DNA of 64,000 bases, taken from assembly GCA_963789955.1 (NCBI GenBank), contig CAWBMV010000014.1, positions 28,693 through 92,692 on the forward strand, written 5' to 3'. The notes beneath the pieces were generated by a model. It searched no databases. It worked only from the letters and a program-made list of their open reading frames with translations, and had not been told where the DNA came from. This stretch comes from an uncultured Candidatus Rokubacteria bacterium. GTDB taxonomy: Bacteria > Methylomirabilota > Methylomirabilia > Rokubacteriales > CSP1-6. The first letter of the stretch is position 1. Every line of letters begins with the position of its first letter. Position numbers and translations under genes: made by a program. This document shows, in pieces, positions 46,686 through 61,459 of the stretch.

Positions 46686-47569
46686 GCCTCACGCCCGCGC
46701 GCTCCTCCTGGAGCGTCGAGGCCTTGAGACGATCCGCGTCGCCCCAGCCACGGTTCATCGCCTCCTGCAGCTCCATCTGGCAGAGATCGAGCAGGCGCGT
46801 GGGCACGTCGTGGACCCGAGCGAGATCCGCCGCCAGACCGAAGTCCTTGTGGGCGAGAGCCAGCGCGAAGCGCGCGGTGAAATCGCCGCGAAACAGGGTC
46901 GCCGGCATGCGCTTGGTGAAGGTCATGTTCTGGCTCACGATGCACCCGGCGCCGAACGCTTCCACGAGTCGCGGCATCGCCACGCCCGCCTTGACCCCCA
47001 GGGTCAGGCACTCGGCGATCAGCAAGTCGATGCTCATGGCCAGCGCGTTGTGGACGATCTTCGCGATCGATCCCGCGCCGAGCTCGCCCACCCAGACCAC
47101 GGCGCGCGAGAACGTATCGAGAATGGGCTTCACGGCGCTGCAGGATCGCCGCGTCGCCACCGACGAACAGTGTGAGCTGACCTTCGACGGCGCCCTCGCG
47201 CCCGCCGTCCAGCGGCGCGTCGAGCAGCTGGGCCCCGCGCGTGGCAAGCGCGGCGCCAACGTCGCGGACGACGCCGGGATCGTTGGTCGTGTGATCGATC
47301 ACGACGAGTCCCGATCGCGCGCCTTCGAGAACGCCTCCGGCACCCAGGATCACGGCGCGCATCTCCGGAGGACCGGGGACACAGACACAGACGACGTCGC
47401 ACTGCGCCGCGACGTCCCGCGGCGAGTCCGCCCAGACCGCGCCGCGCTCGAGTACGCCGGCGGCGGCACTTCGCCGCAGGTCGTGGACCGCTAGCGAAAA
47501 CCCTGCCCGGCGCACGAAGCCCGCCATGGGCGCGCCCATGTTGCCGAGGCCGATGAACCCAACCCGCAT
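46675..47569 (-). CDS. 3-hydroxyisobutyrate dehydrogenase-family NAD(P)-dependent oxidoreductase (frameshift near 47135)
   Basis: GFIGLGNMG, LDAPLDGG, GSIAKIVHN, KDFGLA. Confidence 0.9.
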
Positions 47570-47586
47570 CGCGTTGTCCTCCCCTG

Positions 47587-48475
47587 TCATGCCGACCCCG
47601 GCTTCTCCGGGAGCAAGCCTTCCGGACGCCGGATCATCATCGCCACGAGCACCACGCCGACCAGGATCTGCTGGGCGGCCGCGAGCCGCACACCCGTCAA
47701 AAACGGGATCACGTCCTTCGCGAACCGGCTGCCCTCGAGCAGCCCGAGAAGCACCAGCGACCCGAGGAGCGCGCCGCGATTGTTCCCACTACCGCCGAGG
47801 ATCAGCGCGAGCCAGACGTAGAGGCTCTCCTGCGGGAGAAACATGTTCGGCTCGACGTACGCGAGATAGTGCGCGAAGAGCACGCCGGCAAGGCCCGCCA
47901 CGCCGGCGCCCATCGCGAAGGCCTGCACCTTGAAACGGAAGACCGGCTTGCCGGCAACGGCCGCGACCACCTCGTCCTCGCGGATCGCGCGCAGCACGCG
48001 GCCGAAGGGCGAGCGGCGCACGCGCTCGAGTGCTCCGTAGACGAGTGCGACCGCCACCAGCACGAGGATCAGGTAGAAGAGATCGTACCGGCCCGGGAAA
48101 CCACGCGTGGAGCGGGCGCGGGATCGCGGTCACCCCGTTCGCACCGCGCGTGAGCCACGCCTCGTTCAGGAGGAACAATCTCAGGACCTCGGCGAAGCCG
48201 AGCGTGACGATGGCGAGATAGTCCTCGCGCAGTCGCAGCGCCACGAGCGCCACCGCCGCGCCAGCGACGGCGGCAAGTACCACGCCCGCGGGCCACGCCA
48301 GCAGCAGCGGCACGCCGCCAACGGCCAGCAAGGCGGACACGTAGGCGCCGACGGCGAAGAATGCGACCACACCGAGGTTCACCAGGCCGGTCAGCCCCCA
48401 CTGGACGTTCAGGCCGAGGGTCAGGAGCGCGCGCACGCCGACGAGCGTGAGGATGGCGGTGAGGTACGCGATCAC
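47587..48475 (-). CDS. livM: Branched-chain amino acid ABC permease (frameshift near 48090)
   Basis: LREDYLAIVTLGF, GRVLRAIREDE, RPEGL. Confidence 0.88.
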
Positions 48476-48485
48476 GTGCGCGTGC

Positions 48486-49347
48486 TCACGAGCGCGAGCC
48501 GGCGAGGCCGCTCGGCCGTACCAGCAGGACCGCCAGGATGATCACGAAGCCGATCGCCGTCTTGTAGGTCGGGGGCACGAACAAGGTGCCGGTCTCCTCC
48601 ACGATGCCGACGATCATGGCGCCGGCGAGGGCGCCGGGCGCCGAGCCGATGCCGCCGAGAATGGCCGCCGCGAAGACCGAGATGATGAGCCCGCCGCCCA
48701 TCAAGGGGTCGATGCTCGCGTCGAGCCCGAGGAAGACGCCGGCGCCGCCCGCGAGGGCACCGCCGCCGAACGTGGCGACCGCGATCACGCGATCGGTGGG
48801 GACACCCTTGACCGCGGCGAGCAGCGGGTTGTCGGCCGTCGCGCGCATCGCGATGCCGAGCCGGGTGCGGAGCAGGAACACCTGGGCCAGCATCATCAAG
48901 ACCACGGCGGCGCCGAGGATCAACAGCTGGTCCCGGCCGATCCGCAGCCCGGCCACGCTGGCGGCACGCGTCACCGGCACGTCGTAGGCGCGGAAGTCGT
49001 TGCCCCAGGCGAAGCGCACGACGATTCTCCAGGACGAAGGCGACGCCGATCGACGCGATGGCGAGCGAGAACGGCCGCCGATCCCGCATCGGACGAAACG
49101 CGATGCGGTCCACCACGAGGGCGACGGCGCCCGTGGCCGCCAGCGCGCCGAGCCAGGCCACCTCGAGAGGGGCGCGCGCGCCGGCGTTCAGCGCGAGGGC
49201 GGTGTAGGCGCCGACCGTCAGGTACGTGCTGACGGCGAAGTTGGGAAAGCGCAGGAGCCGCCAGAGCAGCGAGAAGGCGACGGCCGGCAGGGCGAGGATG
49301 CCGCCCGTCATGATCCCGTTGAAGACGTATTGCGCGATAGGCGGCAT
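48486..49347 (-). CDS. livH: Branched-chain amino acid ABC permease (frameshift near 49025)
   Basis: TRLGIAMRATADN, AAILGGIG, RPSGL. Confidence 0.88.
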
Positions 49348-49362
49348 CCGCGCGCGAGCCGA

Positions 49363-50578
49363 TCAGGGATTGATGACGGTCACGAGCTCGGACTTGCCCT
49401 TGCGCACCTGCTGTACGGCGAAGGGCGCGGAGAGGATGTCGCCGATCGCGTCGAAGTCGCACGACCCCGACGCGCCCTCGTAGTTGATTTTCTTGCCCTC
49501 GCCGAGGAGCTTGGCGCCTTCGGCGAAGGAGTACACCGCGGTGCCCGGGCGGGTTGGCGACCGCGCGCAGGTGGTCCTTGATCACGGTGCCCGACGCCTC
49601 GCCCTTGCCGGCCGCCAGGGCAAGCGCCACGATGGACATCTGGTCCCAGGCCTGCGGCGCATAGGGGCTCGTGTCGTTGCGCGGCACCGCCGCGGAAAAC
49701 TCCTTGTACGCGGGCGAATCGAACAGCGGCGCGCGGTCCATGTTCCAGATGCCCTCCGCCACCTCCGGGCCCGTGCCTTCGATGAACTTCGCGTTGACGG
49801 CGAAGCTCGGCGCCAGGATCGCGCCCTTGTAGCCGGCCTTGTAGATCTCCTTGGCCATGACGACCGAGTCGGGGGTGTAGCCCTCGAGCATGATCAGGTC
49901 GGGATTCGTCGCCAGGATGCGCGTGACCTCGCTGCGGTAGGACGGCTTCTTGTCCTCGTAGACGAGGTCGTCGGTGATCGTCGCGCCGGCCGCCTTCACG
50001 ATGCCGCTGAAGGCGTCGCCGAACGAGCGCGCGTAGGGCGTCTGCAGCGCCAGATAGGCGACGCGCTTCCACTCCTTCTTCGAGACGACGAACTTCGCGT
50101 ACATGCTCCCCTGGAGCTTGGTGTTGGGCTGGGTGCGCGCCACGTAGCCCTTGTGCTCGCCCTGCGTCACGGCGTCGGCGCCCGAGACGCCGATGAGAAA
50201 CACCTGCGACTCCACGCACAGAGGCTTGACGGCCAGGGTGACGGCCGAGGCCCACGTGGCGACGATGGCGACCACCTTGTTGACGTCGATCAGCTTGCGC
50301 GCCGCGCGCACGCCGGCCTCGGCGTTGGTCTGGTCGTCCTCGTGGAAGAGCTGCACGGGCCGGCCGAGGATGCCGCCCGCCTTGTTGATCCGCTCGACGA
50401 CGGCCACCACCGAGCGCTGCATGTCCGGGCCGTAGGAGCCGCCCGCGCCGGTGAGCGGGCACAGGGTGCCGATGTTGATCGGCTGCTTCGACTGCGCCGA
50501 GAGAATCGCCGGCGCCCCGAGCACCAGTCCCGCCGTCGCCGAGCACTTCAAGAGCTCACGTCGTGTCATCGTCGCCAT
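49363..50578 (-). CDS. Branched-chain amino acid ABC substrate-binding protein, Tat signal (frameshift near 49545)
   Basis: TRRELLK, PLTGAG, INKAGGILGR, NYEGASGSCDFD. Confidence 0.88.
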
Positions 50579-50599
50579 GTCTGACCCTCCACGTGATGC

Positions 50600-51308
50600 C
50601 TAACCGCCAAGATAGAGACGTTGGATCTCGGCGATCGTCGCGCAGCACGTCGCCCGGTCCCTCCGCGCGGACGCGCCCCATCGCCAGCACGTACGCCCGC
50701 CGGCACAGGCCGAGCGACTCGCGCGCATTCTGCTCGACGAGGAGAATGCCGAGCCCGCGCGCGTTGATCTCGCGCACGCGATCGAACACGAGGCGCTGCA
50801 GCGCCGGTGCCAGGCCGGCGGAGGGCTCGTCGAGGAGCAGCAAGCGAGGCTCCACCATCAGCGCCATCGCCATCGCGAGCATCTGCCGCTCGCCGCCGGA
50901 GAGGGTGCCCGCCCGCGCGCGCCGCCGCTCGGCGAGGATCGGGAAGAGCTGGACGACGGCGCCCGCCCGCTCGTCGAGCGAGCGGCTCGCGGTCCACGCG
51001 CCGATCGTGAGGTTCTCCCACACGCTGAGCGACGGGAAGACGTTCGCCTCCTGCGGCACGTAGCAGAGGCCGCTCTCGACGATGCGCCGCGTGCCCGCGC
51101 CGGTGATATCGGCGCCCTGCAGCACGATCCGACCCCCGCGCGGCGGCACCAGGCCCGCCAGCGCCTTCAGCAAGGTCGATTTGCCGGCGCCGTTGGGTCC
51201 TATGACCGCGACCAGCTCGCCGGCCTCGACGCGCAGTGAAAGGCCGCGGAGGATCTCGTGATCACCGTAGCCGGCCGAGAGCTCGTGCACTTCGAGCAGT
51301 GCCGTCAC
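50600..51308 (-). CDS. livF: Branched-chain amino acid ABC ATPase (frameshift near 50630)
   Basis: GPNGAGKST, LSGGERQM, LVEQNA, YLGG end. Confidence 0.88.
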
Positions 51309-52090
51309 GCGGCGGTTCCCAGATAGGCCTCGAGCACGCGCGGATCGCGCCGCACCTCGGCGAACGGCCCTTCCAGGAGGGTGCGTCCTTGGGCCATCAC
51401 GATCACGGGGTCGCAGAGCTCGGTGACGAGGTCCATATCGTGCTCGATGAGGAGGAACGTCCGCCCGGCGGCGCGGAGCGCGCGGATCGTCTCCACGAGC
51501 GAGCGCATGAGCGTGGGGTTCACGCCGGCGCCGGGCTCGTCGAGGAGGATGACGCGCGGGTCGCCCATCAGCACGCGCGCCAGCTCGAGAAGCTTTTTCT
51601 GGCCGCCGGAGAGCGTCTCGCGCCCGCGCGCCGGCCAGCGGCCCGAGATCCACGGACTCGAGGATCTCGTGGGCGCGCTGACGAAGACGCCGCTCCGCGG
51701 CCGTGACGCGCGCCGGCGAGGCGAAGACGCGCGCGAGCCCCTCGCCCGGCTGCGCGTGGGCGTAGACCAGCACGTTCTCGAGCACGGTCATCCGACCGAG
51801 CGGCCGCGGGATCTGGAACGTTCGCGCCAGGCCTCGTCGCGCGATCGCGTGCGCGGAGAGCCCGTCGATCCGGTCGCCGGCCAGGCGGATCTCGCCGTCG
51901 TCGGCCGGCGTGAGACCGCTGATCACGTTGAAGAGCGTCGTCTTGCCGGCGCCGTTCGGTCCGATGAGGCCGGTGATGGAGCCCCCGTGCACCGAGAGCG
52001 TGCACCCGGCAAGGGCCTCTACGCCGCCGAAGCGCTTGGTGATCCCGGTGACCGAGAGCAGCGGGGTCGTGGCGGAGTCTCCCGTGGCAC
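51305..52090 (-). CDS. livG: Branched-chain amino acid ABC ATPase (frameshift near 51620; start region damaged)
   Basis: KRFGG, GPNGAGKTT, ARTFQ, LDEPGAG, IEHDM, EAYLG. Confidence 0.86.
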
Positions 52091-52214
52091 CGGATCATAC
52101 GTCAGACGCGGCGCGAACGGCAGGGCGAGCCCTTTACATCGCCGCGGCACCGGTCGCGCGGTTTCGTGGTACGGTCGGGCCGTTCGCGGCGGCACGCGCG
52201 GAAAGGAGCAAGCG

Positions 52215-53465
52215 ATGACCGACCGACCCGACCTTGTGATCGACGGCGACGGACACGTGATCGAGGTCGACGAGACCTACGAGCGGATCGACCCCGCGTA
52301 CCGTGAGCGGCGTCCGCGCTACACGCAGGCGGGCCGCGGCTACATCGTGCGGCTCATCGACGGCAAGGTGTGGGGCCCCGAGACCGACATCGGATTCGTG
52401 GGCGTGAACGGCAACCTGCCCCCGCCGAAGGGCAAGGCCATCCACTATCGCCGGATGGGGACCTACAATCCCTGGGCGCGGCTCGCGGACATGGACCGTG
52501 ACCAGATCGACACGGCCGTCATCTATCCGACCGACGAGCTGCCGCTCACGGTGACCCGCGACGCCGGCTTTGCCGCGGCGCGCGCGCAGGCGTACAACGA
52601 CTGGCTCCACGACTACTGCGAGGTGTGCCCGTCGCGGCTCAAGGGCGTCGGCCTGGTGGCGCTCCAGGACGTGCCCGGCGCCATCGATGAGATGCACCGC
52701 GCGGTGAGCCGCCTGAACATGGTGGCCATCCAGATCGGCTGCACGGTGCGCGAGGACACGTTGCTGAGCGACGCGCGGCTCACCGACTTCTGGGCCGAGG
52801 CCGACCGCTTGGGCGTGCCGATCGCGGTCCACGGGCCGGCGCTGCCGTCGCTGTTCCGGAGCTACTTCGACCTCAATCGCCCGGACCACATGCTCGAAGC
52901 CTCGCACATGGCGCACACGTTCGCCCAGATGCTCGCGTGCTCCAACATCGTGACGAGCGGCCTGCTGGAGCGGTTCCGCAACCTGAAGGTCGCGTTCCTG
53001 GAGGCGGGCGCGGGCTGGGTCCCGTACTGGATGCACCGCATGGACGAGTACAACGAGGTCGCGCCCGAGCGCTGGGCGCACATCTCGGCGAAGCCGAGCG
53101 AGTACATCAAGGGCGGCCGCGTGTTCTTCAGCTGCGAGCCCGGCGACGAGTTCATCCCGTTCTTCGTCGATCACGTCGGCGAGGACGCGATGGTGTTCGC
53201 CTCCGACTATCTGCACTTCGATGCGCTGTTCGTCGGCGAGCCCGGCCACGACGGCAACCCGTATCCCGGCACGGTCGCCACCTTGCTCGGGCGCAAGGAC
53301 GTGCCCGATTCGGCCAAGCGCAAGATGCTGCTCGACAACAGCCTGCGCTTCTACGACATGGACAAGGCCAAGCTCGGCCGCCGCGGCGCCCCGGTCGCGC
53401 GACCCGAGCCGCCGGAGGCGCGCCGGAACACCGTGCCAGGGACGATCTCGGCGCGGGACGACTGA
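52215..53465 (+). CDS. Amidohydrolase_2 family protein
   Basis: IDGDGHVIE, ADMDRD, EAGAGWVP, FASDYLHFD; AAAGGAG RBS. Confidence 0.9.
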   Translation: MTDRPDLVIDGDGHVIEVDETYERIDPAYRERRPRYTQAGRGYIVRLIDGKVWGPETDIGFVGVNGNLPPPKGKAIHYRRMGTYNPWARLADMDRDQIDTAVIYPTDELPLTVTRDAGFAAARAQAYNDWLHDYCEVCPSRLKGVGLVALQDVPGAIDEMHRAVSRLNMVAIQIGCTVREDTLLSDARLTDFWAEADRLGVPIAVHGPALPSLFRSYFDLNRPDHMLEASHMAHTFAQMLACSNIVTSGLLERFRNLKVAFLEAGAGWVPYWMHRMDEYNEVAPERWAHISAKPSEYIKGGRVFFSCEPGDEFIPFFVDHVGEDAMVFASDYLHFDALFVGEPGHDGNPYPGTVATLLGRKDVPDSAKRKMLLDNSLRFYDMDKAKLGRRGAPVARPEPPEARRNTVPGTISARDD

Positions 53466-53478
53466 GCGCGACTTCGCG

Positions 53479-55038
53479 TCAAGCGTGGACGCCGATGATC
53501 TTCGCCCAGTCGCTCGCGTGCTGGTAGGCGTACGCGACCCGCATCAGGAGCGGATCGTCGAAGAAACGCCCGACGAGCTGCATGCTGACCGGAAGACCCG
53601 CTGGCGACTTGCCCACGGGCAGCGCGAGCGCGGGGTGACCGGTGTAGTTGAAGGGCTGCGTGTTGCGGGAGCCGGCCCTGCTCGCTGACGCGAGATTGTC
53701 CTCGACGGCCTCGAGATAGCTGCCGGGCGTGTGGTTCTTCGGTGCAGTCATGATGCAGGTCGGCATCACGAGCACGTCGACGTCGGCCAGCGCCGCGTCG
53801 TAGGCCTTGATGTAGGTGGGCCGTACGTTCTGGGCCTTGGCGTACACGCCGCCGTGATAGTTGCGCCGGCTCAGCTCGGAGGCGATGAGCGACAGCTTGG
53901 TGCGCGGCGCAAGCACGTCCGCCTGCGAAGCCCAGAGCTTGTTGATGGCCGCGATGACAGAAGCGGGATAGTAGGTCCTCGTGAAGGCGCCGAAGAACCC
54001 GGTCTTGAATAGCGCCAGCGCGCCCTCGCCCGAGAGCGCGGCCTGCGCGGTTCGGATGGCATGGTGCGCGGGGATGGAGACCTTGGCCACGCCGGCACCC
54101 GCCTTGGCGAGAACGTCGACCGCCGCCAGCACCAGGTCGCGCACGTCGTCCTGCGCCTCGTCGAAGCCTTCCTGGAGCACACCGATGCGCAGCCCGGCGA
54201 CTCCGTCGGCCAGCCGGCCCAGCACATCGACGCGCGCAGGAACATCGCGCGTCGAGCGGGGATCGTACGGGTCGTACCCGGCCGTGGCCTGGAGCGCCGC
54301 CGCCGCGTCCTCCACGGTGCGGGTCATCGGCCCCGTGTAGTCGATCGACTGGTCCGAGCCGAACCCGATCCCGAAGTGCGATACGAGCCCGAACGTGGGC
54401 TTGTGGCCGACGATCCCGCAGAACGCCGCCGGGATGCGGATGGAGCCGCCCTGGTCGCCGCCGAACGAGATGTCGACCTGGCCGGCGGCCACGGCCGCGC
54501 CGGAGCCCGACGACGATCCGCCGGTCACGTGCTCGCGGTTGTGGGGATTGAGGGGACGGCCGTAGTCGCCGATGGCGCCGCCGGTGCCGAATCCGCCACT
54601 CAGCCCGTTCATCACGTTCTTGCCGACGATGGTGCCGCCTGCCTGCAAGACGCGGGTGACCACGGTGGCGTCAAAGTCGGGGACGAAGCCGTCGAGGGCG
54701 AAGGAGCCGAAGCTCATCGGCATGCCGGCGATCGCGATGTGGTCCTTGAAGCTGACCGTCTTGCCCTTCAGCAAACCGTCGGCGGCTCCCTCGATCCGGC
54801 ACTTCCACATCCAGGCATTGAGGGGGTCTTCCTCTGCGCTCGGTCGCCGGCCGGGTGTCCGGCCGGCCGAGACCATCGGCGGCCTGGGCTCCTCGATCCG
54901 TGCCTGCACGAAGGCATCGAGCTGGCTCAGCTGTTCCATGAGGTGCTTGCGGTACAGGACGGCCTCCTCCGGACTCAGGTGGATGCCCAGCTCCTTGGCC
55001 ACCGCCACGACTTCATCGACGTCAGGCACCGCGTACAT
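53479..55038 (-). CDS. Amidase (amidase signature family)
   Basis: FKD, TGGSSSGS, GDQGGSIRIPAA. Confidence 0.92.
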   Translation of the reverse strand: MYAVPDVDEVVAVAKELGIHLSPEEAVLYRKHLMEQLSQLDAFVQARIEEPRPPMVSAGRTPGRRPSAEEDPLNAWMWKCRIEGAADGLLKGKTVSFKDHIAIAGMPMSFGSFALDGFVPDFDATVVTRVLQAGGTIVGKNVMNGLSGGFGTGGAIGDYGRPLNPHNREHVTGGSSSGSGAAVAAGQVDISFGGDQGGSIRIPAAFCGIVGHKPTFGLVSHFGIGFGSDQSIDYTGPMTRTVEDAAAALQATAGYDPYDPRSTRDVPARVDVLGRLADGVAGLRIGVLQEGFDEAQDDVRDLVLAAVDVLAKAGAGVAKVSIPAHHAIRTAQAALSGEGALALFKTGFFGAFTRTYYPASVIAAINKLWASQADVLAPRTKLSLIASELSRRNYHGGVYAKAQNVRPTYIKAYDAALADVDVLVMPTCIMTAPKNHTPGSYLEAVEDNLASASRAGSRNTQPFNYTGHPALALPVGKSPAGLPVSMQLVGRFFDDPLLMRVAYAYQHASDWAKIIGVHA

Positions 55039-55067
55039 GGATGTCTCTCCTTCTCACCTTCGCTGCG

Positions 55068-55785
55068 TCATGCCTTGTCCGGGGTCCCCAGCCAGAACGG
55101 GCTGGTCTTGCCGATCAGCTCGAGATAGGCGCGGCGCTCCTCGCCGCGACGCGGGTACCACGTCGACAGATAGTCGGCGTCGAGCATGTGGTGGCGCGAT
55201 TCCGTCGCGAAGAAGCCGGCCAGCTCCGCGAGACCGATGAAGCCTTCTTCCGAGCGCGCCTGAAAGGCCGGCCAGCGTCGCGCGTGCTCTTCCGACCGGA
55301 AGAGGTTCATGCCGGTTCACAGGAACGGCGGCCGGCCTCGGGAAGGCACCGAAGCCGTAGTTGAGGTGTCCCACGACTCCGGGCGGATCGACCCACACGA
55401 TCCGGCCGTCCCGCATCTCGACGCTCACCGGATCGCCGCAATCGAGGCACGGGGCGTCGACGCGCACCGTCTCACCGGGAAACAGCCAGGTGACCGAGGT
55501 CGCCTCGAACCCGCACTGGGCGAACCAGCGCTGCGCGCCGCGCACGGTGATCCGGTACTGCGTCGGCAGGTTGTTCAGCGGCGGGAACGACGCGATGTAG
55601 TCCGTCTCGGGGTGCAGCCAGCCGATCGGATAGGCGCGCATCACGTCGTGGAGGAGCAAGCGTCCCTCCTCGACGCCGAGGCCCAGCGCCCGAGCGAGCT
55701 CCGCGTAGTGCGGCGCGGTCCCGGTGTCGACGAGCCCGCGCATGATGCGCTGGAACATCCGGTCCATGAGAAGCGCGTCGGCCAT
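55068..55785 (-). CDS. MerB-like (organomercurial lyase fold) selenoprotein; Sec at TGA 55317-55319; 1-nt insertion near 55345
   Basis: N-terminal wHTH-like part, FPPLNNLPTQYRI, WFAQCGFEA, VDAPCLDCGDPV, VGHLN, then PPFL-U-TGMNLFRSEEHARRW once one base is removed. Confidence 0.75.
55287..55304 (-). promoter_or_regulatory. SECIS hairpin of the MerB-like gene
   Basis: CUCUUCC-GGUC-GGAAGAG 12 nt after the UGA. Confidence 0.75.
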
Positions 55786-55925
55786 CGCTGCCTCCCCCGG
55801 CGAGTATATGTCACGCGCCGTCGGCCGGGCCGGCCGGCGACAAACGCCCGGAGAGTGCTAAAGTTGCCGTGGCTCGGCGCGGTGACATGAGCTCGATGCC
55901 GCGGGCTCACGCGGAGGGTGAGGCG

Positions 55926-56987
55926 ATGGATTTCGGGATCTTCAATCTGATGGGGGCGCGCCAGCCGGACAAGCCGACGGCGCAGGTGTTTGGCGAAGTC
56001 GCCGAGCAGACGAAGCTGGCGGACACGCTCGGCTACACGATCGCCTGGTTCGCCGAGCACCACTTCTCGAACTATTGCCTGTGCGCGTCGCCCTTGATGA
56101 TGGTGGCGCATTGCGCCTCGATCACGAAGCGGATCCGGCTCGGCACCGCCGTCGTGGTCTTGCCGCTCTACAACCCGGCCCGGCTGGCCGCCGAGATCGC
56201 CACCGCCGACGCGCTGTCGAACGGCCGGCTGATGCTCGGTATCGGCGCCGGATATCAGCCCTACGAATTCGAGCGGTTCGGCGTCGACATCGCCCGGAAT
56301 CTCGAAATGACCGACGAGTTCTGCGACATCCTCGACCTGGCCTTCAGTCGGGAGTTTTTCAGCTACCACGGCAAGCACTACCAGATGCCGGACACTCACA
56401 TCCCCGCCCGCCCGGTGCAGAACCCGCTGCCGATCTACGTCGCCGGCCATACCCAGGCGATGTTCCGCGCGGCCGCGCGGCACGGCTATCGCGTGCTGAC
56501 GTCGGGCCGGGTCGGCGGGATCAAGCTGCTGGCCGAGCAGTATGCCGACATCGTCGCCGCCTTCGCCGCCGAGAAGGTGCCGCTGTCGCGGGCGCATCTC
56601 ACGCTCAACCGCTTCGCCCACATCACCGGCAGCCGTGAGGAAGGAATGCGGTTCGCGGAGAACGCGCGCTATCAGTCGCGGCTCGCGTCGAGCCTCCGGC
56701 GCCGGCAGGAGGTCATGCAGGGAACCATTCTGGTCGATGTGCCGTTCCCCGACGAGCCGCCGCTCGACACCATCTACGAAGACCTGTTGATCGGCGACGT
56801 CGAGACCGTGGCCGAGAAGCTCGTCGCCGAGATCCACGCGACCAAGCCCGAACACGTGTGCTTCTCGTTCAAGGTCGGCGACACGCCGCACGCTTCGGCG
56901 ATGCGCTCGATGGAGCTGATGATCGGTGAGGTCAAGCCGATGGTCGAACGGGCGCTCGGGCCGGTCGAGCACGTGGCAGCGGAGTGA
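55926..56987 (+). CDS. LLM class flavin-dependent oxidoreductase
   Basis: WFAEHHFSNY, RLGTAVVVLPLYNP, GIGAGYQ. Confidence 0.92.
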   Translation: MDFGIFNLMGARQPDKPTAQVFGEVAEQTKLADTLGYTIAWFAEHHFSNYCLCASPLMMVAHCASITKRIRLGTAVVVLPLYNPARLAAEIATADALSNGRLMLGIGAGYQPYEFERFGVDIARNLEMTDEFCDILDLAFSREFFSYHGKHYQMPDTHIPARPVQNPLPIYVAGHTQAMFRAAARHGYRVLTSGRVGGIKLLAEQYADIVAAFAAEKVPLSRAHLTLNRFAHITGSREEGMRFAENARYQSRLASSLRRRQEVMQGTILVDVPFPDEPPLDTIYEDLLIGDVETVAEKLVAEIHATKPEHVCFSFKVGDTPHASAMRSMELMIGEVKPMVERALGPVEHVAAE

Positions 56988-56990
56988 CCC

Positions 56991-57902
56991 ATGGCACTTG
57001 AAACCCGCGATCCTCGTCTCCACGACCTCGTCGCCCCCGACGCGCCGATCGATCGCGTCGCCGGCGGGCTCACGTTCACCGAGGGCCCGATCTGGCGTGG
57101 TGGAGCGCTGCTGTTCAGCGACATCCCCAACAAGCGCATCGCGCGCTGGCGACGGCTGCCCGAGGGGCCCGAGCTGACGACGTATGCCACGGGCATGTCC
57201 AACGGCCTCACCGTGGACCGCCAGGGCCGCGTGCTGGCGGCGGAGCACGACGGCCGCCGCGTCACGCGCGTCAGCGACGACGGCGCACGCGCGGTGCTGG
57301 CCGAGCGCTTTCAGGGCAAGCGGCTCAACAGCCCCAACGACATCGTCGTGAAGTCCGACGGCTCCATCTATTTCACGGATCCGCCCTACGCCGTCCGGCC
57401 CCTACCGCCGGGGACGGTGCGGCCGGCCGGATGGTGGACGCAGCCGATCGAGGGCAAAGAGCAGTCGATTCACGGCGTGTACCGGATCACTCCCGACGGG
57501 ACCCTTCACCTGCTCGTCGACGACTTCGCACTGCCGAACGGCCTGGCCTTCTCGCCCGACGAGTCGGTGCTCTACATCGACGATTCCGCTCACAAGCACA
57601 TCCGGGCGTTCGAAGTGCGGCCGGACGGCACGCTGCGTGGAAGCCGAATCCTGCTGGACATGGCCTCGGCGGATCCCGGGGTACCCGACGGTCTCAAGGT
57701 GGACGTCCACGGCAACGTGTTCTGCACCGGGCCCGGTGGCGTCTGGGTGTGCCGGGCCGACGGGACACTGCTCGGGCGGATCGTGCTGCCCGAGCTGCCG
57801 GCGAACCTGGCCTGGGGCGAGGACGGGACCGTGCTCTTTTTCACGGCCCGGACCAGCGTCTACCGGATGCCGACGAAGACGCGGGGCACGCTGCTCGGCT
57901 GA
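56991..57902 (+). CDS. SMP-30/gluconolactonase/LRE family protein
   Basis: FTEGPIW, NSPNDIV, PNGLAFSPDE, PDGLKVD. Confidence 0.92.
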   Translation: MALETRDPRLHDLVAPDAPIDRVAGGLTFTEGPIWRGGALLFSDIPNKRIARWRRLPEGPELTTYATGMSNGLTVDRQGRVLAAEHDGRRVTRVSDDGARAVLAERFQGKRLNSPNDIVVKSDGSIYFTDPPYAVRPLPPGTVRPAGWWTQPIEGKEQSIHGVYRITPDGTLHLLVDDFALPNGLAFSPDESVLYIDDSAHKHIRAFEVRPDGTLRGSRILLDMASADPGVPDGLKVDVHGNVFCTGPGGVWVCRADGTLLGRIVLPELPANLAWGEDGTVLFFTARTSVYRMPTKTRGTLLG

Positions 57903-58076
57903 TCAACCTCGACGTGGCCCGGGATGAGACGTGGCGCATCTTTCCGGCGCTCACCGCCGCTTACGTCGTGTGCCGCTGCGTCCGGTGTCATCCTTGATCC
58001 ACGCCCCGAAGATCGTCGCGACCCCGGCGGTCAAGAGGACCAGCACGAGGGCGAATCCGGTCATCGGCGGGCCCTT

Positions 58077-58451
58077 TCACTCCTTGGACGCGAGCACTTT
58101 GGCGCACTCGTCGGCGACGCGGCTATCCGGATCGTTGTCGCCCGGCATGGTCGCCCATCCAGCCTTCTTCACGTACTCCGGCCGCTCCCACTCTCCGGTA
58201 TCTCGGAGCGCCTTGAGCTTCTGCTGCTGACCGGGATCGTGATGTGCCGCCGCGACGCAAATCGACGTCAGGCGATGCACCACCGCGTCTTCGGCCATCG
58301 CCTTGGCGTTGGCTTGCGCAGTGCCGCCTGTCACCCATCCACCCCATCCGAAGCCGACGATCATGGTCACCACGACGGCGGCGACGGTAAACCAGAACAT
58401 GAGCGTCTTCGTCGGGCGCGCTTGGCTCCATCGTTCACTGAGATTGGCCAT
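58077..58451 (-). CDS. Conserved hypothetical membrane-anchored protein
   Basis: One TM segment, GFGWGGWVTGGTA, two Cys, GWATMPG; GAGG RBS. Confidence 0.8.
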   Translation of the reverse strand: MANLSERWSQARPTKTLMFWFTVAAVVVTMIVGFGWGGWVTGGTAQANAKAMAEDAVVHRLTSICVAAAHHDPGQQQKLKALRDTGEWERPEYVKKAGWATMPGDNDPDSRVADECAKVLASKE

Positions 58452-58509
58452 GTTTCACCTCGTTCGAGTTACGTGTCGGCGCAACTCCGCGTCTAGTCAA
58501 CCGCCGAGA

Positions 58510-58525
58510 TGCAAGTTCAGCGCCG
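58510..58525 (-). promoter_or_regulatory. sigma-54 promoter for 58451
   Basis: CGGCGC-TGAAC-TTGCA (GG-N10-GC). Confidence 0.65.
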
Positions 58526-58601
58526 CAGTAGCCGAAGGCCGCACCAGTACGTGGCGCCGCGACAGCCCGCGAACTGGACACCGCTACGGAAGATGCGCGA
58601 C

Positions 58602-58635
58602 GCGACAGGATGTCGGCATAGCGACATGCTGTCGC
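58602..58635. promoter_or_regulatory. Tandem enhancer (UAS) palindromes
   Basis: GCGACAggaTGTCGG and GCGACAtgcTGTCGC, 19 bp start-to-start. Confidence 0.7.
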
Positions 58636-58657
58636 CTGAAACTGGAGCTCCGGCCCG

Positions 58658-59993
58658 TCACGACTCCGGCAATCGGAACATGCGCTGCAGGGTCCGGACG
58701 CTGACACCGAGAATCCGGGCGGCGGCGTTCTTGTCCCCCTTGGTCTCGGCGAGCACGCGATCGATGTACTGCTTTTCGATCTCGCCGAGGGTCGGACGGA
58801 CGTGATCGCCGGTCGCCCCTGGAACGCCGAAATCGGTGGTCAAGTCGGCCGGTGTGATGGTCGCTTGCTTGGTAAGCGTGGCCGCACGCTCGACGACGTT
58901 CTCGAGCTGCCGCACATTGCCCGGCCATGGCTGCTTGACGAGCCAGTCCATCGCCTCGTCGGAGAAGCGCAGGGCCGATTTGCCCAGGCGGGCCGCGGCA
59001 CGCTCAAGGAAGTGCTGGGCGAGTAACGGTATGTCGTCACGCCGTTCGCGCAGGCTCGGGAGCCGGATGGGAATCACCGCGAGTCGATAGTAGAGATCCT
59101 CGCGGAAGGTTTCGCCGCTCACCCGGCTCGCCAGGTCGCGATTCGTCGCGCTGATGACACGCACGTCGAGCCGCGTTTCCTCGTTGCCCCCCACCGGTCG
59201 AACCGTCTTGTCCTGAAGGGCTCGCAGAAGCTTGGCCTGCAGCGCCAGCGACATGTCCGCGATCTCGTCCAGGAAGAGCGTGCCGCCGCTCGCCTCGGCG
59301 AACAGTCCGCGCCGGCGGCGCTCGGCGCCGGTGAACGCTCCCCGCTCGTGACCGAACAGCTCCGACTCGAGCAGCGTGTCGGGAATCGCCGCACAATTGA
59401 CGGCAATGAACGGTCGCGCGCGCCGGGGCCCGTTCCAGTGGATGGCTCGAGCCACGAGCTCCTTGCCGCTGCCGCTTTCCCCCATCAGGAGCACCGTCGC
59501 CTCACTGCCGGCGACGGCGGCGATCTGATCGAGCACGTTTTGCATCGCGCGCGAGTCGGCCGAGCAGGTTCGTCACGGCGTATTGCCGGCCGACTTCCTC
59601 GCGTAGTCGCCGGTTCTCTTCGCGCAGCCGCTGATCCTCGAGCGCGCGACGGACGGCGATGGTGACTTCCGCCATCTTGAATGGCTTCGAGAGATAGTCG
59701 TAGGCGCCTTGACGCAGGGCCGCGATGGCCGTTTCGAGGCTCGCGAAGGCCGTCATCAAGATGACGCGGGCTCGGGGCTGCAGTCGCTGCGCTTCCCGGA
59801 GCACCGCCAGGCCGTCGATCTCGTCCATGACGAGATCGGTCACCACGACGTCGTACTCGTCGCGCGCCAGCGCCGCGAGCGCCTCGGCGCCAGAATGGGC
59901 GGGGGTGACCGCGAAGCCCTCGCCCTCCAGGTGACGCTGTATCAGCTTCACCATTTCCTGTTCGTTGTCGACCACCAGCACGTGCCGCGTCAT
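58658..59993 (-). CDS. sigma-54-dependent response regulator, NtrC/AtoC family (frameshift near 59550)
   Basis: REC domain (VTDLVM, SKPF), [22 protein letters not shown], Fis-type HTH. Confidence 0.92.
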
Positions 59994-61459
59994 GCCTCGC
60001 ACGCTCCATCCTCGGCCAGCCAGACAACGAACGTCGCGCCGGCCCCGGGCTCACTCTGGAGGGTGAGCTCGCCTCCGAGCCCCTTGAGGATATCGCGGCA
60101 GATAGGAAGCCCCAGCCCGGTTCCCTCGCCCGGCGGTTTGGTGCTGAAGAACGGCTCGAAGACCCGCGCCTGGATCGCCGTCGGAATACCGGGCCCGCTA
60201 TCCTGGACGGCGATCTCGACGCCCGCCCGTGTGCCCCGGAAGGTTCGACGCGCGGCGAGCTGGACATGGCCGGTCGGCCGGGCCGCCTCGAAGGCGTTCA
60301 TCAGGATATTGATCAGAACCTGCTGCAGCTGATTGCGGTCAGCCCGCACGGCAGGCAGATCGGCCGGGATCGACACCTCCAGCGTGACGCCGTGTCGGCG
60401 CGCCGCGTACTCGAGCAGAAGCAAGAGGCGATCGACGAGGTCCTTGAGGACGACCGACCGGATCTCGGGCTTGACCGGCCGCACGGTATCCAGTAGCGAG
60501 CGAATCATGGCGGTGATGCGATCGATCTGCCCGACGATCACGTTGAGCTCATCGCGCCGGGCGTCGCCGGGCGGCAAGTTCTGCAGGATGAACTCGGCGC
60601 GGCCGGAGATGATGTTCAGCGGTGTGCCGATCTCGTGGGCGAGGCCGCTGGCCAGACGACCGGCGACGGCGAGCGTCGCCGAGTGGCGAAGCTGCTGCTC
60701 GAGATCGAGCGTGTGCTCGGTCTCGCGCAGCAGATCCTGACGGGCGGCCTGAAGCTGCGCCGCCATCGTATTGAACGCCTCGGCCACTCGACCGAGCTCA
60801 TCGCGCCGGTCGACCGGCAGCGGTGTCGCCGACTCGCCCCGCCCCAGATGCGTGATGCCCTCCATCAGGCGTGACAGCGGGCGAAACACCTCACGCTGCA
60901 GCACGAGCCCCGTGAGAACGGTCATCGAGATCACGAGCAGACTCAGCCGGACGACGATGTCCCAGGTGGCGCTGCGCACGCGCTCGTCGATCGGCGACAC
61001 GAGATGCGCCACCTCCATCGTCCCGACGACGCCACCTTCATTCGCTCGAATCGGCAAGACATACGAGAAGAGTCTCTGCTTGCCGCTGCCGGAGGAGAGC
61101 CCCTCGGGCTGCCCGGTCTCGGCCACGCGCCGCAGCACGTCGGCCGGCACGGCGTCGGCGGCCGGAAGCCGGTTCGATACGAACAGAGCATTCAGCGAGC
61201 GATCGAAGATCCGGATGCGATCGACCTGCTCCTGATCCTTCACGACCTCGGCCAGCATGCCCTGCAGGTCCGAGTCGCGCGGCCCACGAAGGCCCCGCTC
61301 GACACTGGCGCGGATGGCCTTCGCGACGAGGATCACGGTCCGCTCGGTGTCGGCAAGGAGCTCACCGCGGCCGGTCCGGACACGGATGAGGCCATACACG
61401 CCGACGACGAGGATCGGCGGGATCATCAAGACCAGGATCAGCCGGAGTCTCAGCCCCAT
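59990..61459 (-). CDS. HAMP-domain sensor histidine kinase
   Basis: Two TM segments, DELGRVA, LAHEIGTPL, QDSGPGI, FFSTK, GTGLGL. Confidence 0.93.
   Translation of the reverse strand: MGLRLRLILVLMIPPILVVGVYGLIRVRTGRGELLADTERTVILVAKAIRASVERGLRGPRDSDLQGMLAEVVKDQEQVDRIRIFDRSLNALFVSNRLPAADAVPADVLRRVAETGQPEGLSSGSGKQRLFSYVLPIRANEGGVVGTMEVAHLVSPIDERVRSATWDIVVRLSLLVISMTVLTGLVLQREVFRPLSRLMEGITHLGRGESATPLPVDRRDELGRVAEAFNTMAAQLQAARQDLLRETEHTLDLEQQLRHSATLAVAGRLASGLAHEIGTPLNIISGRAEFILQNLPPGDARRDELNVIVGQIDRITAMIRSLLDTVRPVKPEIRSVVLKDLVDRLLLLLEYAARRHGVTLEVSIPADLPAVRADRNQLQQVLINILMNAFEAARPTGHVQLAARRTFRGTRAGVEIAVQDSGPGIPTAIQARVFEPFFSTKPPGEGTGLGLPICRDILKGLGGELTLQSEPGAGATFVVWLAEDGACEA

Follow-up and report, generated by a model that had tools for sequence, protein, structure and literature searches.

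On the reverse strand of the window, the 64,000-nucleotide stretch of DNA analysed here from an uncultured Candidatus Rokubacteria bacterium, two open reading frames (55054..55785 and 55068..55310) lie where a hidden MerB-like organometallic lyase had been predicted, with selenocysteine at the second catalytic cysteine and outside any mer operon. The question is whether these frames represent two short proteins, a damaged gene, or one gene that crosses an extra base and an in-frame TGA, and what the product might do. Both frames are present as originally described, the span 55068-55785 is 718 nt long (3n+1), and writing the break as X and the TGA as U yields one frame of 238 aa with U156. As judged from the sequence, this is almost certainly one gene behind two apparent breaks, encoding a selenium-containing relative of MerB. 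The genome assembly carrying the window is 87% complete, with 5% contamination. The features of the locus are as follows.

55068..55785, minus strand: putative MerB-fold selenoprotein gene, 238 aa across the extra base and the predicted selenocysteine codon
55791..55795, minus strand: Shine-Dalgarno-like GGAGG, 5 nt ahead of the ATG at 55785, read from the sequence
55504..55515, minus strand: Cys91-Gly-Phe-Glu94, aligned to MerB Cys96-x-x-Asp99
55438..55449, minus strand: Cys113-x-x-Cys116, with C113 aligned to the MerB structural Cys117
55341..55349, minus strand: frame-shifting stretch with the extra base, a base missing in aligned relatives and public contigs
55317..55319, minus strand: in-frame TGA, predicted to encode selenocysteine 156 in the position of MerB Cys159
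55308..55310, minus strand: internal ATG (Met159), the start of the second ORF for gene callers
55287..55304, minus strand: SECIS-type hairpin with a 7-bp stem and GGUC loop, the loop 19 nt past the TGA
53479..55038, minus strand: amidase (PF01425), a local neighbour 29 nt downstream of the MerB-like gene
55926..57902, plus strand: LLM monooxygenase and SMP-30/lactonase genes, divergent local neighbours

Most local details of the original prediction held. The internal ATG at 55310 has no purine-rich ribosome-binding site, and GGAGG precedes the ATG at 55785. The hairpin pairs 55304-55298 perfectly with 55293-55287 around its GGUC loop, 12 nt from the TGA at 55319-55317. The amidase is as close as described, although the gap to its ATG is 29 nt, not 30 bp. 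An intact homologue of 241 aa (L001) is 96% identical to the window protein, and the closest named matches of the locus are at 92-96% identity. An Rfam scan of window positions 50000-60000 gave no matches at E up to 1, and no promoter or terminator was found in a scan of 54900-56000. Contigs of the RNA run X15 span the gene, and contigs of this kind cannot show transcription.

Origin of the extra base

One base at 55341-55349 was missing in five aligned relatives. It was also missing in all four covering contigs, which came from three of four public runs (the fourth had no coverage) and represent related strains, not the source sample. When 13,465 bases of the window were compared with relatives, further single extra bases appeared at 47135, 48100, 49024, 49549, 50634 and 51620, the evidence coming from two relatives at two of these sites and from a single relative at the other four. 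In the same assembly, neither rpoB nor rpoC runs in a single frame, the second of the tuf copies is one base longer than the other, and there is a change of frame within selD. The relatives that lack the base, together with the splitting of rpoB, rpoC and one tuf copy, make an assembly error much likelier than a pseudogene, and the frameshift in the window is very probably such an error.

It is improbable that the family encodes a selenoprotein while the window copy is a genuine frameshifted pseudogene. Damaged copies do occur among its kin, with internal deletions in G004 and G014 (L090 and L089), one additional base in G137 (L151) a few codons from the shift in the window, and an early TAG in L048. 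Against this stand the other single extra bases, at least six in neighbouring coding regions within the 13.5 kb compared, the essential genes split in the same assembly, and the window copy itself, in which every motif and the hairpin are intact. Programmed frameshifting was ruled out, since 79 of 79 complete loci run in one frame.

Several other regions of this genome showed similar irregularities. Branched-chain ABC transporter genes at 47100-52100 of the window carry single extra bases relative to relatives, and the segment 48400-53470 has a second copy, 90% identical, at G000:C6:11180-16225. The selD gene (G000:C6:164300-165326) has a Cys-x-x-Sec motif, soon after which its frame changes. 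A sigma-54 response regulator at 58658-60002 is seemingly split over two frames, probably through another assembly error.

Probable recoding of the in-frame TGA

A search of species genomes gave 140 loci, the best 80 of which were analysed; one was cut by a contig end, leaving 79 complete loci, many of them close kin and with two genomes contributing two loci each. All 79 were in a single frame with TGA at the site, and TAA, TAG, Cys or Trp codons never occurred there. Their titles include Acidimicrobiia, Dehalococcoidia, Nitrospinae, Tectomicrobia, Deltaproteobacteria and Burkholderiales. Natural homologues with Cys at this position were also found, among them the Cys/Cys proteins P0007, P0010, P0016, P0075 and P0164, one at 45% identity.

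The hairpin that follows the TGA had been proposed as a SECIS element, and its codons proved to be frozen: CTC, TTC, CGG and GAA were each present in 79/79 loci and TCG in 75/75, compared with background frequencies of 0.46, 0.85, 0.28, 0.17 and 0.47, respectively, in those genes. Two more distant Cys-form genes with DNA at the site (L153 and L158) had no hairpin. By chance, a perfect hairpin with a 7-bp stem and 4-nt loop lies 10-14 nt downstream of 179 of the 157,628 TGA triplets of the genome, and 12 of those 179 have a loop starting with GG. Because the stem is invariant, covariation cannot support the hairpin. Folding energy as proof of a SECIS was dropped, with unremarkable z-scores of -0.63, -0.23 and -2.23 for three spans. 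The SECIS of E. coli fdhF has a similar GGUC loop at a similar spacing. The bacterial consensus in the available part of PMC13188914 calls for a loop of 3-9 nt that has G as its first or second base and lies 16-37 nt from the UGA, and for an energy of -7.5 kcal/mol or lower; the window hairpin agrees with it, having a 4-nt GGUC loop 19 nt from the UGA and -11.9 to -15.7 kcal/mol.

The machinery for selenocysteine insertion is present in the genome: selA, selB and selD pass their cut-offs, and there is a tRNA-Sec (selC). More broadly, selA was over cut-off in 45 of 50 carrier genomes, which represent 50 of the 80 loci picked for spread, versus 1 of 14 controls. Recoding of UGA156 as selenocysteine, under a SECIS-type hairpin and in a selA/B/C/D genome, is in our assessment close to certain.

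Database proteins generally miss this reading: among the 120 listed matches (of 910), 102 stop before the site, 16 read Trp and 2 read Cys. Genetic code 4 (TGA as Trp) was ruled out, as window genes end normally in TGA and no DNA sequence had a Trp codon at the site. That the TGA is a true stop between two short proteins, the second starting at the ATG 6 nt downstream, is extremely improbable: that ATG is retained in 79/79 loci and 102 of the 120 listed matches do terminate early, but TAA or TAG occurs in 0/79, spacing and frame never vary, the Met is also kept in the continuous Cys homologues, the hairpin codons are frozen, and the break would strike a catalytic residue within one domain.

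Predicted fold and active site

The assignment to the MerB fold was borne out by profile and structure. The read-through protein scored 54.2 bits with PF03243, versus a cut-off of 27, and the N-terminal frame 35.9 bits. An AlphaFold2 model of the intact homologue L001 had a pLDDT of 90.6, and all 11 of its Foldseek matches at E up to 0.001 were MerB or MerB2 (best 3e-10). In a wide structure search with the same model, MerB2 ranked first (Z 17.2, rmsd 3.5 A, 190 residues aligned); the next match had Z 15.5 (4.1 A, 188 aligned), and the one after that Z 5.8.

The key residues of MerB are Cys96, Asp99, Cys159 and Cys117 (PMC8261052, available in part). Profile alignment to PDB MerB chains placed C91 at Cys96, E94 at Asp99, C113 at Cys117 and U156 at Cys159, in agreement with the predicted Cys-x-x-Glu plus Sec active site; C91 and E94 were invariant in 42 of 42 alignment rows. 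The CxxC motif, which had been put forward as a distinctive addition, is not one: C113 corresponds to the structural Cys117 of MerB, and the motif also occurs in both SaoL matches and in a Methylobacterium merB within a mer operon. Its C116 is missing in some family members. Five Poriferisodalis-like proteins (L069, L071, L074, L075 and L077) have no Cys116 and carry a C-terminal extension, for a total length of 357-381 aa.

Breadth of the family and double-Sec forms

Beyond what had been predicted, the family is large and cross-phylum and includes double-Sec members. Within the phylum, 119 of 251 genomes had a match at E up to 1e-8 (including the unpublished G232 and G115) and 74 of 251, by hand count, at E under 1e-69 (including G232); the family was also found in several other phyla. 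Nothing else in the analysis draws on these two unpublished genomes. In a representative search, many matches ended at profile position 90, right before C91. A metagenome scan built from such fragments gave at least 572 loci. Among the best 80 of these, the first site was TGA in 78 and Cys in 2, and the second site was TGA in all 69 that reach it, the other 11 being cut or frameshifted. Since this set was chosen for truncation, it establishes that double-Sec forms exist and not how frequent they are. A second hairpin follows the first TGA, with all 6 pairs present in 79/80 Sec91 genes versus 12/79 Cys91 genes. Mean energies after the first site are -8.7 for Sec forms and -8.0 for Cys forms, so that the pairing register alone separates them.

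A tree was built by a quick method from 79 rows (one short row was dropped) and rooted at the midpoint. A branch with SH-aLRT 98 separated all 46 rows of the Glu group, including L140, which has Asp, from SaoL and the mer-operon MerB proteins; several basal rows are long branches. Several Asp-type branches also contained genes with selenocysteine codons, two of them additional genes of the genome that carries the window. These two (L107 and L108, at G000:C2:3584-3961 and C36:159610-159987) are MerB-like: they have Cys-x-x-Asp, their second catalytic site is an in-frame TGA, and the hairpin core is the same; their loci are 91% identical and perhaps derive from two strains. A second double-Sec MerB-like clade, with Sec-x-x-Asp, comprises 13 rows (L258, L260, L261, L264, L265, L268, L270, L271, L273, L274, L276, L277 and L279) on one branch with SH-aLRT 100, apart from both SaoL and the Glu clade.

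Gene neighbourhood

The catabolic surroundings of the window gene had been offered as a clue to its substrate. This did not hold across the family: of 78 related loci, one has the amidase next to the gene, one the lactonase and five an LLM gene. The most frequent neighbours were quinone oxidoreductase, RidA, acyl-CoA ligase and enoyl-CoA hydratase, which came from one lineage block. A conserved operon was sought and rejected, with none in the 78 single-Sec loci and no cluster above 8/92 in the double-Sec loci. In two close relatives, L002 (3437-4888) and L003, a 484-aa protein without a Pfam or NCBIfam match lies between the LLM and MerB-like genes.

The predicted independence from a mer operon stood. 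Annotation covered 119 neighbouring proteins, one for each of the 81 recurrent clusters and a further 38 from the 49 unique adjacent ORFs. No mer gene, metal transporter or MerR was found among the annotated neighbours of the 78 loci, and no MerA or MerP motif among 586 neighbour ORFs. No MerA or MerR over cut-off was found in the 87% complete genome that carries the window, and MerA was over cut-off in 2 of the 50 carrier genomes. Some loci did have selenoprotein neighbours. AhpD-like CxxU genes, for which no NCBIfam model reached cut-off, stand directly upstream in 5/78 loci (L026, L040, L041, L046 and L051), a UGSC-family selenoprotein occurs in 4/78 and precedes the AhpD-like gene in L040, L041 and L051, and a short GrdB/PrdB-like selenoprotein occurs in 2/78 (L009 and L055).

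Proposed function and alternatives

By analogy with MerB, the protein may cleave or capture an organometal or organometalloid independently of a mer operon, a reading to which we assign a probability of about 0.45. SelB would bind the hairpin and insert selenocysteine at UGA156; the Cys thiolate and the selenolate would then clamp the soft metal or metalloid centre of an organometallic substrate, Glu94 would relay a proton, probably from water, to carbon, and the hydrocarbon would be released with the metal held as in MerB. The absence of a mer operon, and usually of MerA, suggests a stand-alone, high-affinity trace scavenger whose substrate need not be mercury.

Several points count against a lyase. 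Glu replaces the Asp that MerB needs. Selenolates, with a pKa near 5, are poor proton donors, and here one would replace the proton donor Cys159. In the favoured MerB path, as given in the accessible part of PMC10114901, Cys159 donates its proton to Asp99. No metal transporter, MerR, or MerA or MerP motif was found among the neighbours, and some neighbours are redox selenoproteins. Mercury binds selenium very tightly, which, with MerA in only 2/50 genomes, makes mercury turnover hard to see; where MerA is absent, the Hg-Se product would not easily be freed.

A close rival, which we consider possible though less probable, is that the MerB fold here carries a selenium-based redox enzyme. In this reading, residues 91 and 156 would cycle through a selenenylsulfide (a diselenide in double-Sec forms) while an organic substrate is reduced or reductively cleaved, Glu94 would act as acid-base, and no heavy metal would take part. 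The double-Sec forms, common among the 80 selected metagenome loci (first site U in 78), suggest redox cycling, and the AhpD-like, UGSC-family and GrdB-like neighbours and the rarity of MerA in carrier genomes point the same way. Most uncharacterised selenoproteins are, moreover, thought to be redox enzymes (PMC13188914, in its accessible sections). The literature search, however, yielded no MerB-fold protein with such activity, the two MerB residues bridge the metal and have no direct bond to each other (PMC10114901, available part), and the selenoprotein neighbours come from few lineages.

Less likely still is a non-catalytic metal sink, chaperone or sensor, in which the Cys/Sec pair would bind Hg, Cu or another soft ion and an N-terminal winged helix would read its state. 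MerB variants without Asp99 have low activity or bind Cu, according to the available parts of PMC8261052 and PMC10114901, and the structure of residues 1-70 is similar to winged helices of the LexA type (Z 5.8 and 4.8). These scores, however, are in the range of common arrangements, the same stretch is also covered by the MerB alignment, the second long helix varies, and the acid at position 94 is invariant, as expected for catalysis.

Novelty and implications

In the accessible literature, including parts of PMC9312934 and PMC10778597, SaoL was the only MerB-type selenoprotein found, although other catalogues could list the clade. The 119-family selenoprotein table in the accessible part of PMC13188914 gives only SaoL for MerB, and a term search of the available text of PMC2398784, PMC12013277, PMC13326102 (with its supplement) and PMC13745706 found no mention of MerB. 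No model of NCBIfam (June 2026) reached cut-off with the window protein. The homology search of BSepDB may file family members under SaoL. Surveys of methylmercury demethylation, as described in the available portions of PMC8261052 and PMC12484752, retain only MerB with Cys96, Asp99 and Cys159; the family would be doubly invisible to them, being cut at the UGA and having Glu instead of Asp.

We tentatively propose, with somewhat less than even confidence, that the gene marks a cross-phylum clade, so far uncatalogued, of MerB-fold selenoenzymes (Cys/Sec and Sec/Sec) that stand alone and carry out new chemistry. If this is true, the clade would represent hidden, MerA-independent demethylation of trace organomercury or other organometals and organometalloids in soils and sediments, or else the first redox catalysis on a MerB fold, and the superfamily would be one that mostly uses selenium, with the enzyme of the mercury operon as a minor side branch. 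The existence of natural Cys/Cys, Cys/Sec and Sec/Sec forms on one scaffold allows a direct test of what selenium contributes at a metal-binding catalytic site. The family also bears on the role of MerB-like proteins in genomes without MerA, a question left by PMC8261052 in its accessible part.

Comparison with known MerB-type proteins

Canonical MerB (EC 4.99.1.2; PDB 1S6L, 3F0O and 3F2G) shares the fold over about 190 residues, and its triad positions and Cys117 equivalent align with the window protein. Identity is only 17-22%, however, and the window protein has Glu94 for Asp99, Sec156 for Cys159 and extra C-terminal helices. It scored 25.9 bits against a cut-off of 193 and 22.7 against 200 with the canonical equivalogs NF009710 and NF033555, and its family lacks linkage to merR, merT and merA. 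MerB2 of Bacillus megaterium (PDB 5C17, 99Ser variant) is the best structural match and likewise has a non-canonical third residue, but this is Ser instead of Glu; it also has Cys instead of Sec and is located in a mer operon.

SaoL, a MerB-like organometallic lyase selenoprotein (NF040728), also has Sec at the Cys159 place (Haft and Gwadz, bioRxiv 10.1101/2022.07.06.499078, available in part). The two share the PF03243 fold, the position of Sec and truncation in annotation. The expected distance from SaoL was nevertheless clear: the window protein scored 33.2 bits with the SaoL model against a cut-off of 140, whereas two true SaoL matches elsewhere scored 165-176, and it lacks the CU motif. 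Where SaoL has Cys-Sec and Cys-x-x-Asp, the window protein has Leu-Sec (Leu, Arg or Ala-Sec in the family) and Cys-x-x-Glu. Its neighbours are the amidase, LLM and lactonase genes and not the nine-gene SAO locus; a search of the genome for SaoC gave no match, and the controls of that search were likewise empty. The family occupies a separate branch of the tree, includes double-Sec members, and has hosts that include soil Rokubacteria and Acidimicrobiia, not only anaerobes. On sequence grounds, the protein is neither SaoL nor canonical MerB and belongs to a separate Glu clade, which includes forms with predicted selenocysteine at both catalytic sites.
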